Assembly: GCA_034520965.1 (NCBI GenBank)
Contig: JAXHMY010000007.1
Location: forward strand, 1-64,000
Direction of reading: 5' to 3'
Origin: Spirochaetia bacterium
GTDB taxonomy: Bacteria; Spirochaetota; Spirochaetia; DSM-16054; Sediminispirochaetaceae
DNA length: 64,000 nt
Shown piece by piece: positions 30,001-42,000 of this stretch (position 1 is its first letter; each line of letters opens with the position of its first letter). Position numbers: made by a program.

Positions 30001-33000
30001 CAGCTCCAAACCAGGCAAAGGCCGCCAAATGTGCCAACAACACCGTCGAGAGTCTCATGTTGGTGGTAAACAGCACGAAAGGCCTCAGATTGACTGAGAG
30101 TAGGGGCAGAATTTCATAAAAATCTCGATCCTGTGAGTAGCTGTGAGTATCATACGAGTACCGACAGGGCTATAAGTTGTTCTAAATGAGTACATGAAGC
30201 TGTGCCAGGAATCGGCACAAATGTGGTGTAGATAGTAGTAGTAATTCATGGGGATGGAGGTGGCGCTGTTATGCTCCTGATTATCGATTACGTTCTGGTG
30301 TGCGGCTTTCTCTTGTTCATAATGAATGGGCTCGATCGGGTATTGCTTACCTATGCGGTATTCTCAAAAGATATTCTGCCTGGTGTGCAGCTTGTCATAG
30401 AAGCCTCCAATGGTATCGGCGCTGATGACGCGAAGAAAGCAATCGAGAAAGCCCACCGGAGGAAAGATCAAGTTAACAGGGCTTCTGATGAAGGGCGAAG
30501 GAGTTTTAGAGTTGCCTGGGTTACAGCTATCATCGCTCTGATCCTGTCAATCATTACTCATCTCATTTTTTCATCAGAGATTTTGCTCAAAACAACACTT
30601 GGTTGCGGGATCGGAATGGTTCTTTTATCAATGGGGTTCATGCTTCTCAAGTATAGAAAGGTATCTCGCTTAATCGGACTGCTTACCCAAGGATCGTCAT
30701 CATAGAAATAGGAGGAGAGATTGAATATGAATAACAGGTATCTAACTGAAGGGGGTTTTGTTCTGTTTATCAGTAAGATAAATGGAAAGACCCGTCCCTT
30801 ACTCGACTACACACTTCACTCGGCAGTGGAAAAAGAAACCCCGCTTCTTTATCTTTCCCTTGAAATGGATGGAGCTGCACTCATAAACCGTTTGATCGAA
30901 AGAAAGTCCGGTATTGGAGAGGGAAAAATACGAAAGGGAGCTCTGTCGGTTGCAGAGTTTGATAGCTTCCGGAAAGGAACAGATGTCATCTATCAATCGC
31001 CTTTGTTCATTGAGGATGGTATTCCCGTTGAACTATCTGATGTAGAGGATATCATCTTAAAAGCAAAGGCAGAATCCGGAGTTGAAATAGTTGTTGTTGA
31101 TTACCCTGGTTTGTTGAAGGTAAACGGTGAGGCCGATTCCACTCGGAGATTAAAGAAAGTGTGCAGGGAACTTTCTCGATTATCAAAGGACCACAGTATC
31201 ACAATTGTCGGCAGTATCCTGCAGCCTCGTTCGGGTAAAATAGAAGATGAAGAAGTGCTCACCTCTCTCGCTGATGAAGTGATAGACCTTAGGTCTGCTC
31301 ATTCTCAAGGTTGATCTGTATGCTATCTATAAAAGCAGTATCTGTATGGATGTATTGAAAGTCTTAGCTTTTAACAATGACAAGACGGTTCGGGAGACAG
31401 TGGTCTCATCATTCTTGAACTACTTTCTCGATCCCCAGGGTGATCATGGCCTTGGAAGTGAGCTTTTACTGGAGTTTCTCGAGTATATGCAGGAAGAGGT
31501 TCCTGAGTTGAAGAAGGAAGTACTTGATTCAATACGCTCCTACCAGAAAGCCTCCTCTACATTTATTACCGTTTCCCCTGAATGGAGCGGTTCGGGGGAA
31601 GGGCCTTCAACTCGTAGACGTTTGGACTCACTTATTTCTATTAAGCATGAATCGATGGCTTTTCTCATCGGAATTGAGGTGAAGCTCTATGAAGGTTCGG
31701 TCAGTGACTCCGAGCAGCTTTCGGCCTATGCGCAGATGCTCTCCGATTACAAGAGTGAGATCGTTGATGCGGAGGAGCTTGCGGAAGATTCGGTGTATCC
31801 GGTACTCTGCTATCTGGTTCCATCTGACAGTAGTAAGGCATCAAGCTACGCTAAAGCAGCAAAGAAGACGTGTAAGGAGCTGGGGGTAAGTGGAGTATAC
31901 GTGATGGGATGGTCTTTGGTGGAGGGATTCATCAAGCACGTTCTTGATAAGCAGAATGACGGGTCTATTTCACCAGCCGACACACATGCTATGCATATTC
32001 TGAAAAGTCTCCGTAATGCTGCCATAAAGAACTTCCGGTTTGAGCTGCCTGTTATTCGTTCGGCTGCTAAATTCCCCTCCAACTCTCAATATGAAGAGGC
32101 GCTGGGAGAGAATAAGCTCCTGCTGGATAGACTGCGTCGGGCAATTGAGATTGATGGGATCAAAAGACCACTCACCGCCAGCCCACGTCATACTGCAATT
32201 GGTATTCCTGCGGTGGCAAATCCTGGTAAAGGCCAGTTCAACTCTCTGTGCAGGGTGGTGACGGTGGATTCCTATGAAGAAGGTAATGTACTCGAACAGT
32301 TTGTACTTCAAATCGACAAGGGAATATATGAGAAGGGGTTTGATGAGATAAAGACCACCCTGAATGCCTTTGAGGGCAGAGCCGACATCACGGACAAGGA
32401 TGAGAAGGGCAATCAGTATTATCATCCGAATGGCAAAGCCGATGAGCCGGTCTATAGAATTCGTTTCACCGGACCCTCTGAAGATGAGGATACCGATATA
32501 AACGGTTTGAGAACCCTTATGAAGATTCTGCGGAAGTATTTTCCGAACTAGACGTTTAGACTCTGTGCTGGTGCGTACCAGGGCAGAGTCTTGTTGTATA
32601 ACCATTCTGTTTTTTTCCCCACTGTGACAATAAACGGCACACTGATGCTGCTACAGTAGAGGTCTATAGGAGAAAGACAATGAACGAAAGCAAGAGCCAA
32701 TTTTTCCACCTCCATGTCCATTCGGAATACTCCCTCTATGACAGCACTGTTCACCTGCATCGATATGTAGAAGAGGCCACGCACCGGGGATTAAAGCACC
32801 TGGCTGTCACAGATAGTGGGAATATGTTCGCTGCGCTTGAGTTCTACAGGCTGTGCCAAGAGGCAGGAATCAATCCCATCATCGGATGTGAGTTTGTCCT
32901 CTCCTCCGCCTCTGCTACCACTGACCGAGTAAGTGAGCGTGGGACCATCCTCCTGATTGCAGAGAATAACCAGGGCTACCATAACCTGATGCAGCTGAGC

Positions 33001-39000: not shown

Positions 39001-42000
39001 ATTTCGATGATTTCCGATACAATTCCGCCAAAATTCCCTCTTTCCTGCGGAATGCTGGTCTGCAGCTGCTCCATATACTCATTCTGGGTCTCTCGTGCGG
39101 AGCTTTCATCGGTCTTTAGCTCAACGAAGAGTACGTTCTCTATGCGCTTTAGCTCCTTATCGGGAATGAAGAGGGCGAAGTCCACGGCAATAGCCTGGTG
39201 ATGGTCGGTTTCCTTAAAAAAACGAAGGGGGAGAGGAAATTCAGGAATGATATGTGCCTTAGCCATGCACTCCGCTGAGATCTCCTTAGGCAAAGAACTG
39301 TTTCCATTCCTAACAAATTGTGCAAGTAAATCCGGAAGAATGAAGGAGAGAATTACATCAAAATGGCGTTCGAGCTGGAACTTCGGATAAAACCTCCACT
39401 TGTTTAATCTTGATAATAATGATTCGATTGTGAATTCCGGCTGTTCTTTATACATGTTCTACCTCCCATATACTATTAATGATAAAGGTTGTTTTAGCTT
39501 TTTGAAATAATAAGGTCAAATTTAAAACTGAAAATTATTGTAGAAAGAAGCTGACGGTTTCTACTGCCCTTACTTCGTTCCGGTACGCATCGGTTCCGGA
39601 TCAAGTCCTGCCGGGTCCCAGCCACACAATAAAAAAGCGGCCTGTTTTGCAACAAACCGCTTTTTCATTTTGGGCCCACCCTACGTTTTCTCCTTCGGAG
39701 AAAGCCTCGGGCTTGCACTTTGCTGGCGCAAAGTGCTTGGCCAGGACTTTTTCAAGTCCTGGCGCTAACACCAAAAAAATAGCCGTCCGCAAGTAGCGAA
39801 CGGCTATTTTTTATGGGCCCACCAGGACTTGAACCTGGGACGCCCTGATTATGAGTCAGGTGCTCTAACCAACTGAGCTATAGGCCCGATAGACTGCATA
39901 ATACCGAAAATGGGGCTTTTATGTCAATATCGGGGTTTCTGAGCTTAAGATATTTTGAGCAGATAGTTTGAGTCTATATTTGGCATGTTTATGATCCGAA
40001 GCGCCGGTCCAGTTCCGCCAGGAGCTCCTCCGGAAACAGCGCCAGCTCCGCCTCCTCCAAACGGTGGAGTAAATCCAGCCAGCCGGGATGTTCGCGGATA
40101 AGCTCTTCTAGCAGGTGGAAGGCTTCTTCACGATAGTTGGCCTGGAGAAGGGCGACGGCCTTCCAGTAACGCATTTCACGGTTTTCAGGTGCGGTTTTGA
40201 GTGCGCTGCGGTAATCGTTCATTGCCCCCTCGAAGTCGCCATTTCCTAATTTTGTGTCCCCTTCCTCTAAGCGCTTGTAACCGTCATGAAGGTTAAGCAG
40301 CCGCTCCAGCTCTTCAAGTGGTTCGGGGTGGTCGTCGACCCGTAGGTTTACACGGTATTCGTCGGCGATGTGTCCTTTAGAAGTAGTGCCGGCGGTAAGG
40401 ATGGCAGCGGACTGCTTGCCGCGGATATCTCCACCCAAAGATTCGGCGGCCTGCAGTGCATTTAACAGGCGGCGGGCTAAGGATGGACGGGCTTGAACTG
40501 CGCCAGTTTGAGTTTTGGTTTGAAATGCCGCAGCCATGGCCTCACATACCCCGGTGCGGGCCATCATATTGGCCTGGACGCTAAAGCCTTCGCCTACAAT
40601 ATGGCCGGCTTCTCGGATACATTTAGCTCCCGTATATGCAGCAACTCTCCCGTCGGCTGAGAGCACCGCCAGTTGGCGATAATCGCGTCCCTCATCTTTC
40701 CCTGTGAGCTGGTCGATCACTTCCTTTGGCTGTGTGCCCTTCTGTAGTAAATCCAGGCCGTCGGGGCCGTATTGACGATTTACAAGAGATTGGGTGGCGA
40801 CGGCGCCTACACCGGGAATGAGCCAGGGAACCGCGCTACCGACTGCAAAAAAATGAGATTGTACTCCAATTCCCATCTCTCCGGTTTGCTGATCAATGGC
40901 GACAATAGAATAGGTAGCGGCTAAATTTTTATATATACACTGCATAGCGGTTCTCCTTGCCTGTATTGTAGCAGAAACACTTCGTTTTTTGAAACGCCAA
41001 GTTTTCTGATTCAAACCTCTGAATCAAACGAGATTAGTTGACGTCCGTCTTTCGGCTTCCTATGATTGAAGTATGGAGTATAATGCTGAGTGTGTGGTTG
41101 ACAGTAAATCAGGTCTTGGGGAAGGGCCGGTGTGGAGTAGTACCCGGCAGTGCCTTTACTGGGTAGATATCGATGCGGGGCTGATCCACTCATATTCTCC
41201 CGCAAAAGATGCGAGGCGTACGTGGGATGTAGGAGTGAAGGTGGGGGCTGTGGTTCCGCGCTCGGAGGCAGCCGGCGGCGGTCTTGTTCTGGCTACGGAG
41301 AAGGGTTTTGTCGGTTTTGAGGAAGAGAGTGAACGTCTGGAGTATATCGTGGATCCGGAAGCGGATAATCCGGATACTCGCTTTAACGACGGAAAATGTG
41401 ATCCTGCGGGTCGTTTCTGGGCAGGCACCATGTCATATTCCCGAACACGAGGTGCGGCTAACCTGTGGTGTTTGGAGGTTGACTACAGCGTAACGAAGCG
41501 GGTTTCCGGTGTTACGGTGTCAAACGGTATCACTTGGAGCCTGGATGAGAAAACGATGTATTACATCGATTCCAATGAGTTCGCGGTAGTGGCCTTTGAA
41601 TACAACCGTGAAAACGGGGCTATCTCCAAACCGCAACCGGTGGTTTTAGTACCTCAGGAGCTGGGAAAACCGGACGGTATGTGTATTGATGCCGAGGGAA
41701 AGCTGTGGACCGCCCTGTTTCGCGGTGGGGCAGTTGCTCGTTGGGATCCCTCTGATGGAAGTTTAATTGAGCTTATTAAAATTCCGGCGGTGCATGTAAC
41801 CGCCTGTGCTTTTGGCGGAGAAGACCTCCAAACTCTGTATGTTACTACTGCCCGGGAGCCGGCTGACGAGCAGCAGCTGGCTGAGTACCCGCAGGCAGGT
41901 GGATTGTTTGCACTGGAATTGGGGGTGAAAGGATCCCCTTTCTTTGAGTTTGGGAGAGGGTGAATATAAAAAATATAGCCGACCCCAAAAGTCTTGGGGA

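Follow-up and report, generated by a model that had tools for sequence, protein, structure and literature searches.

The PHP-palm-thumb-fingers fold of DnaE1, the Pol III alpha subunit (2hnh/5fku, 2hpi, 5lew/7pu7), is shared by the short protein examined here (i.e. mini-DnaE), whose model matches the E. coli, Taq and M. tuberculosis enzymes with TM scores of 0.88-0.93. Unlike DnaE1, mini-DnaE is without the (HhH)2, clamp motif, OB and CTD parts, has altered GS and FNKSH motifs, retains five of nine PHP ligands and is encoded by a second-copy gene in a putative WYL regulon. In the accessible part of the 2013 survey PMC3919608, the bare PHP-Pol3 architecture is missing from Table S2, and proteins without an intact active site were left out. 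The available portion of PMC6511836 describes ImuB as a polymerase fold kept under selection after catalysis was lost, in a damage-induced operon, as is proposed below for the minis; however, ImuB is a LexA-controlled Y-family protein, whereas mini-DnaE is a WYL-linked C-family protein without a clamp-binding part. The regulators CapW/BrxR and PafBC/DriD have the same wHTH-WYL-WCX layout as the regulator found here, with an inverted repeat before their own and the regulated genes and a location in defence islands (PMC9122601 and PMC11662680, as far as their accessible text goes), but here the cargo is made up of shortened replisome genes and exchangeable nucleases in place of BREX or CBASS. 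The N-terminal part of intein-split cyanobacterial DnaE (i.e. DnaE-N; PRK09532/PRK07373) is of similar length, but mini-DnaE extends ~55 residues beyond the split point (matching PRK07373 39-91), mini-DnaE has no intein, and the genome no C-half. No description of a truncated or dead DnaE with a WYL protein was found in the literature searched, which excluded most subscription papers.

The tRNA-Met island and its truncated polymerase

The window (i.e. the whole 64,000-nucleotide stretch of Spirochaetia DNA that was analysed) contains the following features.

20032..20101, left-hand att-like direct repeat of 70 bp
20283..23771, minus strand, IetA ATPase and IetS S8 peptidase, an anti-phage pair inside the same island
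23985..24955, minus strand, ParA and a small ribbon-helix-helix protein, a separate cassette
30201..30219, putative operator TGTGCC-N7-GGCACA, 51 nt before the four-gene operon
30271..30705, plus strand, hydrophobic protein of 144 aa, first operon gene, no family, hydrophobic stretches by eye
30721..31314, plus strand, DnaB C-terminal (RecA-fold) fragment of 195-197 aa, 26% identical to host DnaB 222-365
31346..32551, plus strand, PD-(D/E)XK nuclease (PDDEXK_4), weak PADLOC PDC-S26 match, candidate effector
32623..32641, putative operator with one mismatch, 38 nt before mini-dnaE
32680..35076, plus strand, mini-DnaE, 798 aa, PHP-palm-thumb-fingers only
35085..35801, minus strand, 238-aa protein, signal-peptide-like start, no family
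35851..35869, putative operator, 49 nt before the (divergent) 238-aa gene
35970..37454, minus strand, DUF2779 protein, Cas4/RecB-like nuclease and RNase H-like exonuclease domain
37473..38507, minus strand, wHTH-WYL-WCX regulator, one of two WYL domains in the genome
38544..38562, putative operator, 36 nt before the WYL gene, suggesting autoregulation
38574..39455, minus strand, 293-aa protein without a family, perhaps a nuclease from a D...ExK motif noticed by eye
39764..39833, right-hand att-like direct repeat of 70 bp, comprising the tRNA 3' end and terminator
39814..39887, minus strand, tRNA-Met, integration site

The survey's finding of a four-gene plus-strand run with WYL, DUF2779, ParA and tRNA-Met genes was reproduced. 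The island marked by the 70-bp repeats is about 19.7 kb long and is a defence hotspot, with IetAS inside it and AbiE together with a TOTE primase-helicase immediately beyond its limits. A plasmid-like island at tRNA-Met had been proposed; the tRNA and repeat bear out the insertion, while 'plasmid-like' comes down to ParA, whose best plasmid matches are from Brachyspira (52%) and Borreliella (41.5%) and whose cassette adjoins AbiE in another genome (G003). None of the 14 PF00589 (tyrosine integrase) matches is on this contig, and neither a serine integrase nor primase, Rep, replication initiator or transfer families were detected among the island proteins scanned, some ORFs having no family. 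The DnaB fragment has no N-terminal domain and, as noted earlier, a degenerate Walker A motif. The 238-aa protein has no match in the ESM Atlas, and a homologue adjoins DUF2779 elsewhere (L057 in G288). In contigs from three mat runs, IetA is joined to DUF2779 and the operon is missing.

ORF, Pfam domains (PHP 10-176, DNA_pol3_alpha 296-554, finger 558-714; HHH_6 and OB not found) and alignment to E. coli alpha 2-809, ending at ~809, all agree that mini-DnaE is a C-terminally truncated third PolIII-alpha gene. The end is not a frameshift: the next ORF starts 8 nt past the stop codon on the opposite strand, and a six-frame search of the genome (86% complete) with a C-terminal-part profile recovered only the normal DnaE1 (C1) and DnaE2 (C3), indicating that there is no separate C-half. 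Modelling by AlphaFold2 from a 67-row alignment gave a pLDDT of 92.9, against 44.5 from seven sequences only. The protein scored 863 bits with NF004226, under the cut-off of 1002, and 465 with NF004225. The catalytic aspartates are kept, as had been reported (D397/D399/D551, equivalent to E. coli D401/D403/D555), together with R386, R392, R692, R693, K741 and H743. Four residues are changed (i.e. S364A, K553R, F756V and N757L in E. coli numbers), and the PHP metal ligands were scored against HHDHEHC[D/N]H, the head row in the supplement of PMC3919608.

Recurrent truncation and loss of active-site residues

The five best relatives of mini-DnaE (62-87% identity, 779-826 aa) share its end point and its absence of PF14579/PF01336, as described previously; the next matches are full length at ≤47%. 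The count of five in six members keeping DIDxDF was correct, with the further detail that in P0005 the third catalytic Asp (D555) is replaced by Asn. All six are altered at other invariant sites, which differ among clade mates (G363D, D555N, R710S/Q). Searches for the genomic contexts of the five, by N-terminal alignment against metagenome, genome and viral contigs, yielded 12, 2 and 6 loci, respectively, with a best identity of 48% and no clade member; a DNA search likewise gave none among 40 relatives. Plasmid and phage matches reached at best 42%, and the two that were opened (H18, H59) were full length.

A wider collection gave 21 truncated proteins with the same cut of DnaE1, excluding a 441-aa palm-fingers form (L157) and a partial gene (P0209). 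Contig-end or frameshifted DnaE1/DnaE2 accounted for 17 of 23 short-frame candidates in the class and four of eight regions in other classes, and these were rejected. Short DnaE clusters of 631-742 aa, partly viral, were also seen in the ESM Atlas and are possibly fragments or split genes. In the tree the minis derive from DnaE1, with at least 5-6 changes to the truncated form forced by the starred branches, and a single origin was rejected (p-AU 2.6e-7; 14 minis versus 21 DnaE1). The same truncation thus arose repeatedly from DnaE1 in spirochaetes: the supposed clade is a genuine, selected group of truncated proteins, but not one clade. Ends were measured for 17 minis inside and outside the clade of the window's protein; all fall 2-39 residues past the same motif, and 13 fall 12-39 past it. 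Minis were present in at least 7 of 401 genomes of the class, with open frames of 690-860 codons.

All three catalytic aspartates are present in 109/109 full-length enzymes but in 14/21 minis, at least one being missing in the other seven. No mini keeps all 14 polymerase sites (86/109 full-length enzymes do) or all nine PHP ligands (89/109), although the L153 mini is nearly intact, with one change and 8/9 ligands. S364, F756 and K553, changed in the window's mini-DnaE, are invariant in all 109. The window's protein and four of its five clade mates keep the three aspartates, R390, R396, K758 and H760, and R709, K758 and E688 are retained in 18/18 minis, which may point to continued use of a nucleotide pocket. 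Between the Asp-less minis L083 and L084a, dN/dS is ~0.18, and four other pairs gave 0.13-0.35, saturated in one; these values are rough as dS is near saturation. Among mat variants of mini-DnaE, 12 of 17 listed variant sites are synonymous versus 0.23 expected. A sliding-window comparison picked out no surface that had stayed specially similar to the host enzyme. Since aspartates are lost in a third of minis (7/21) whilst dead pairs remain constrained, catalysis looks dispensable, and the sequences of independent lineages indicate that selection keeps the mini fold, not the chemistry.

WYL linkage and a shared putative operator

Of the ten minis with context, six have a WYL gene within 8 kb and eight have one on their contig within 20 kb; L035 and L036 have none on their contigs. 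These genomes carry 1-5 WYL domains. Comparable linkage was seen at 0/17 other dnaE loci and 2/40 DUF2779 loci. A WYL gene had been predicted within ~9 kb of new minis, and the three examined had distances of 0, ~11 and ~19 kb (i.e. one in three). As the paired WYL proteins are mostly 20-30% alike, the pairing was repeated as well; among relatives of the window's WYL, 1/33 has a mini inside the fetched flanks. No other neighbour is constant, with DUF2779, DnaB fragments and DnaQ-like exonucleases being swappable. DUF2779 was rejected as an obligate partner, dnaE being present in none of 40 further loci (of 87 other matches). DnaB fragments adjoin three of ten minis, two without Walker A. Defence neighbours comprise GmrSD, an IetA-like ATPase, an Eco57I-type methylase and helicases (L031, L092), McrBC (L033) and a type I methylase (L155). 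Repair genes adjoin some minis: RecT and Gam share an operator region with the L083 mini, and AddAB-like genes (L084) or DnaQ-like exonucleases (L031, L033) lie 3' of others. The minis beside RecT/Gam and the DnaQ-like exonucleases are Asp-less.

The operator palindrome occurs at four sites in the window versus 0.09 by chance (0/100 shuffles reach four), and all three exact copies in the 3.35 Mb genome are within the module (0.1 expected). The same palindrome stands 36 nt upstream of a mini-dnaE-WYL pair of independent origin (L083) and immediately upstream of 5/31 related WYL genes. Across 151 genomes of the phylum, matches occurred in 10, mostly singly, versus three for the control. None of the 15 sites given by a sigma-70 consensus scan (13.4 expected by chance) coincides with the four operators. 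The WYL control suggested earlier is thus favoured by a shared putative operator and by WYL linkage in other mini families.

Possible roles of mini-DnaE

Our preferred reading, which we would accept about as readily as reject, is that mini-DnaE is a look-alike of the replicative polymerase core, with dispensable catalysis, and belongs to a WYL regulon in a defence island; it is more likely to be a decoy that does no copying, or a binder of DNA ends, than a compact working polymerase. By analogy with CapW/BrxR/DriD, the WYL protein would bind the four TGTGCC-N7-GGCACA sites and activate the module in response to single-stranded DNA. Judged from sequence and model, mini-DnaE cannot dock on clamp or tau or proofread, and so would stay outside the replisome and be harmless to carry. 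It would act by binding, either baiting or sensing invader proteins that target the Pol III core or holding 3' primer ends as a scaffold or brake; each of these is entertained tentatively. The DnaB piece, which lacks Walker A, may be another mimic of the replisome, and the PD-(D/E)XK or DUF2779 nuclease expressed with them the business end. Mimicry is weakened by the clade being 44% identical to host DnaE1 and not its sister in the tree. With three aspartates kept, weak gap filling by the window's protein is possible, though not what is selected.

A distributive, proofreading-free gap-filling polymerase, damage-induced and serving a repair/recombination module, with dead relatives as a later fate, is possible but doubtful. 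It would account for the retained aspartates, R390/R396/R709/R710, K758 and H760, the intact modelled fold and the repair-type neighbours (RecT and Gam, AddAB-like, DnaQ-like). E. coli alpha minus 342 C-terminal residues reportedly retains weak activity. WYL activators drive damage responses (accessible part of PMC11662680). However, residues invariant in 109/109 full-length enzymes are changed here, clade mates are altered at differing sites, the minis next to DnaQ-like exonucleases and RecT/Gam lack a catalytic Asp, DnaE2 is already present, and a single architecture row of the 2013 survey (PMC3919608) is without (HhH)2. The substitutions here (S364A, K553R, F756V/N757L) and the Asp losses leave the idea of a handy bench polymerase unsupported.

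Slow decay of captured dnaE1 copies, truncation being tolerated since the toxic clamp/tau-binding half is removed, is unlikely: scattered losses of invariant residues, long branches, rarity and the optional nature of the cassette (absent from three mat runs) fit it, but open frames, dN/dS of about 0.13-0.35, the synonymous excess, clustered ends and an operator of their own in two mini families do not, and the selection data already largely refute it. Even less probable is an ImuA-ImuB-DnaE2-like mutasome under WYL control, as the survey had envisaged. A RecA-fold partner without an ATPase motif adjoins the C-family gene, and the PHP site is dead as in DnaE2, but tree and NCBIfam scores group mini-DnaE with DnaE1, its partner is a fragment of DnaB, no ImuB or Y-family match was found among module proteins, and every DnaE2 row of Table S2 in the available supplement has (HhH)2 (PMC3919608). 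The survey's other suggestion, a private replicase of an integrated plasmid, draws on ParA with plasmid relatives, the att repeat and the DnaB-like neighbour; we consider it highly improbable given the missing clamp, tau, HhH and OB parts, the dead PHP, a DnaB fragment lacking both N-domain and Walker A, the absence of primase and Rep families from the island proteins scanned, no tyrosine integrase on the contig, and the separateness of the ParA cassette.

(HhH)2 was held to be near-indispensable for C-family polymerases, and dead members were filtered from the standard survey. The PHP-Pol3-only form arose at least five times, repeatedly beside unrelated WYL regulators, and outlasted Asp loss under purifying selection. 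As a bench polymerase mini-DnaE is unpromising, but the repeated Asp-tolerant minis suggest that the replicase fold has an undescribed role without catalysis in the response to damage or phage. The window offers a directly testable case, with a named regulator, an operator of 19 bp and an operon of four genes, and the clade supplies a natural variant at the third Asp (P0005). A speculative generalization is that bacteria repeatedly make decoys of their own replisome, dnaE1 (and dnaB) being copied, stripped of fork-poisoning parts, decayed at the active site and placed under an ssDNA-sensing WYL switch, so as to bait phage or mobile-element proteins directed against the Pol III core and license a neighbouring nuclease. 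If the decoy reading is true, C-family pseudo-polymerases would underlie a guard/decoy type of immunity in bacteria, and the minis could serve directly as probes for phage inhibitors of DnaE that are still unknown.

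Structure and recurrence of the mini-DnaE

The survey's finding of a DnaE that stops after the fingers, without clamp, HhH, OB or tau parts (i.e. g02791, the window mini), was borne out by its Pfam domains and by an alignment spanning residues 2-809 of E. coli alpha.

32680-35076 (+), mini-DnaE gene, 798 aa; PHP, DNA_pol3_alpha and finger domains, nothing beyond

The predicted model has an intact PHP-palm-thumb-fingers body (pLDDT 92.9) and scores TM 0.88-0.93 against solved DnaE structures. A normal DnaE1 and a DnaE2, 44% and 30% like the window mini, are encoded in the same genome (86% complete), and a DnaE C-terminal profile built from 70 C-terminal parts matched these two alone in the genome, indicating that no C-half is coded elsewhere in it. 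The five best relatives (62-87%), which form one 50% cluster, were also described by the survey as truncated and do end at the same point. In two other studies, three mat runs yielded contigs that cover the module (i.e. the four-gene operon with mini-dnaE plus the 238-aa, DUF2779 and WYL genes) at 80-99% identity; one contig spans operon genes one and two, and another links the nuclease gene to mini-dnaE. Among the 40 variant sites listed of 2718, 17 lay in mini-dnaE, and 12 of these were synonymous, where a share of 0.23 would be expected (P = 4e-5; with a share of 0.33, P = 0.002).

A search of representatives gave six more proteins of 767-791 aa, 36-45% alike, that stop just after the fingers and might be split genes. 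The finger family was then surveyed over 401 genomes of the class, with full listings for 162 multi-copy genomes chosen from the result, and 23 short-frame candidates were fetched. Six proved to be closed minis that no HhH/OB gene follows (loci L031, L033, L035, L036, L083 and the gene L084a); with the window mini included, minis occur in at least 7 of the 401 genomes. Eighty genomes of other classes yielded three more (L153-L155). In quick IQ-TREE searches, minis branched at several points among DnaE1 (representative P0149 with DnaE1 family f12, P0135 within f35, L083 and L084a within f30), and the window mini clade had a long stem and was not sister to the host's own enzyme. A single origin was rejected (p-AU 2.6e-7) with 15 of 50 rows, i.e. 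four long minis, two DnaE2 and nine DnaE1, left out, and the survey's single clade of truncated DnaE is not supported. Further DnaE pieces were seen: a 426-aa PHP-only duplicate right behind L084a (L084:8021-9301) and, among housekeeping genes, a 441-aa degenerate palm-fingers piece that lacks PHP (L157:8924-10246), with no WYL gene seen near the latter in 19.5 kb.

Putative operators and neighbours of the minis

A putative operator, TGTGCC-N7-GGCACA, recurs within the module.

51 nt before the operon, TGTGCC-N7-GGCACA
38 nt before mini-dnaE, TGTGCC-N7-GGCACA with one mismatch
49 nt before the 238-aa gene, TGTGCC-N7-GGCACA
36 nt before the WYL gene, TGTGCC-N7-GGCACA

These four sites compare with 0.09 expected, and four were reached in 0/100 shuffles; the whole genome holds three exact copies, all in the module (0.1 expected). 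The fetched loci (1.44 Mb) contained 13 sites that deviate by no more than one mismatch, five of them directly before relatives of the window WYL gene (31 loci). Another of the 13 lies at L083, 36 nt before the mini-dnaE of that locus, which is followed by a WYL gene 58% like that of the window, and at L031 the mini and its unrelated WYL gene have another upstream motif in common. According to the literature on WYL proteins, BrxR binds inverted repeats ahead of its own and regulated genes (PMC9122601), and single-stranded DNA is the signal to which CapW, PafBC and DriD react (PMC11662680). We infer binding of the WYL protein to the operator, and likewise the sign of control; the WYL control proposed by the survey is supported by an operator common to the operon, mini-dnaE, 238-aa and WYL genes.

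Ten minis came with context, from genomes holding 1-5 WYL domains. Three of them adjoin a WYL gene, six have one at most 8 kb away and eight have one on their own contig at most 20 kb away, as compared to 0/17 other dnaE loci (many short) and 2/40 DUF2779 loci. A WYL gene within ~9 kb, predicted in advance, was present for one of three new minis; in the reverse direction, a mini occurred at only 1/33 relatives of the window WYL gene. DUF2779 and a DnaB fragment each accompanied 3/10 minis and a DnaQ-like exonuclease 2/10, whilst other neighbours included RecT/Gam, AddAB-like, GmrSD, McrBC and methylase genes. WYL is the only near-constant partner of minis. At L155 the DnaB fragment lies directly upstream of the mini and lacks Walker A, and nearly the same is true in the window.

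RecT and Gam-like genes recur beside DUF2779 or WYL with the same operator at L057, L059 (with SSB and RadC) and L083, and DUF2779 might serve as exonuclease in a RecET-like set. Further copies of host machine parts, namely FlhA pieces and a copy of FliM, lie 3' of WYL genes (L033:4667-7848, L051:5844-7265).

The island at tRNA-Met

The survey described a plasmid-like island at tRNA-Met. An att-like 70-bp repeat (the tRNA-Met 3' end plus terminator) does flank 19.7 kb, and the ParA resembles plasmid proteins (52% like a Brachyspira and 41.5% like a Borreliella plasmid ParA). In another genome, G003, however, the RHH gene adjoins AbiE without IetAS, and in mat contigs IetA is joined straight to the operon or to DUF2779. 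Besides the module, the island carries IetA/IetS, a TcmP/DUF5131 pair and ParA, the last with a small RHH protein, and AbiE and a TOTE primase-helicase lie just beyond its ends; no tyrosine integrase was found on the contig (0/14 genome matches there). Rather than a plasmid replicon, the island is a hotspot for cassettes, with many defence genes among them.

In the TcmP/DUF5131 pair (25216-27081; PADLOC PDC-M30/M41), DUF5131 is divided between two frames, and run X5 contigs are one base short at 26529. At 28353-29723, an in-frame fusion joins a nucleotidyltransferase-like N-terminus to an EamA transporter; beside this gene, at about 29963-30084, lies a 122-bp repeat of which the genome has three further copies. 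A 78-nt repeat with TGAGTA units (23897-23974 and 30116-30193) sits at cassette junctions in mat contigs. A second motif, made up of GGTCACAT twice over and possibly representing recombinase arm sites, is found ~140 nt inwards of each of the two att-like scars (12847 and 20244). A 119-nt repeat (12679-12797 and 39631-39749) contains another tRNA-3'-end-like remnant and suggests nested insertions out to about 12.7 kb, with AbiE, the TOTE primase-helicase and HEPN between. Upstream of the WYL gene, a 293-aa orphan (38574-39455) with a D...ExK motif by eye is a possible second PD-(D/E)XK nuclease.

Catalytic residues and candidate roles

Residues were numbered as in E. coli, counted off the alignment of the window mini with E. 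coli alpha. D401/D403/D555 and the PHP ligand pattern follow PMC3919608. Among the chosen polymerase sites, the residues other than these three aspartates help to contact the triphosphate and the sugar. The three aspartates were present in 14/21 minis as compared to 109/109 full-length enzymes, all 14 polymerase sites in 0/21 as compared to 86/109, and all nine PHP ligands in 0/21 as compared to 89/109; R709, K758 and E688 were kept in 18/18 minis. The window mini retains the three aspartates, four arginines, K758 and H760, is changed at S364A, K553R, F756V and N757L, and has five PHP ligands left; its clade mate P0005 carries D555N. With dS near saturation, dN/dS was ~0.18 for the Asp-less minis L083 and L084a and 0.13-0.35 in four other mini pairs.

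Repeated truncation at one boundary has taken away the clamp, tau and duplex-binding parts, leaving a mini unable to join the replisome. A private replicase, as considered by the survey, fits poorly and is excluded for practical purposes because these parts are missing. The survey's alternative, an ImuA-ImuB-DnaE2-like cassette acting as a mutasome, also suits the data poorly and is very unlikely. Slow decay of captured dnaE copies sits badly with the observations and is improbable; catalytically dead minis remain under selection. For the window mini clade, a weak repair polymerase is a tentative possibility, E. coli alpha shortened to about 818 residues reportedly retaining low activity. Given the retained fold, the relaxed chemistry and the WYL control, we favour a binding role, turned on by DNA damage or infection. 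The mini might act as bait or sensor against invader proteins that aim at the polymerase core, or might hold 3' ends, serving the co-expressed nuclease or slowing replication; taken together, these binding roles have about an even chance of being correct.

In the architecture rows of a 2013 survey, (HhH)2 is present in all except one DnaE3, given as PHP-Pol3 with an unidentified tail, and bare PHP-Pol3 is in none, proteins without an intact active site having been excluded (PMC3919608). Another report describes ImuB as a dead polymerase (PMC6511836), which belongs to a different family from the C-family minis. A literature search found no published description of a truncated or dead DnaE with WYL. 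The pairing of a WYL regulon with a C-family pseudo-polymerase is a new combination of known parts, with a putative function.
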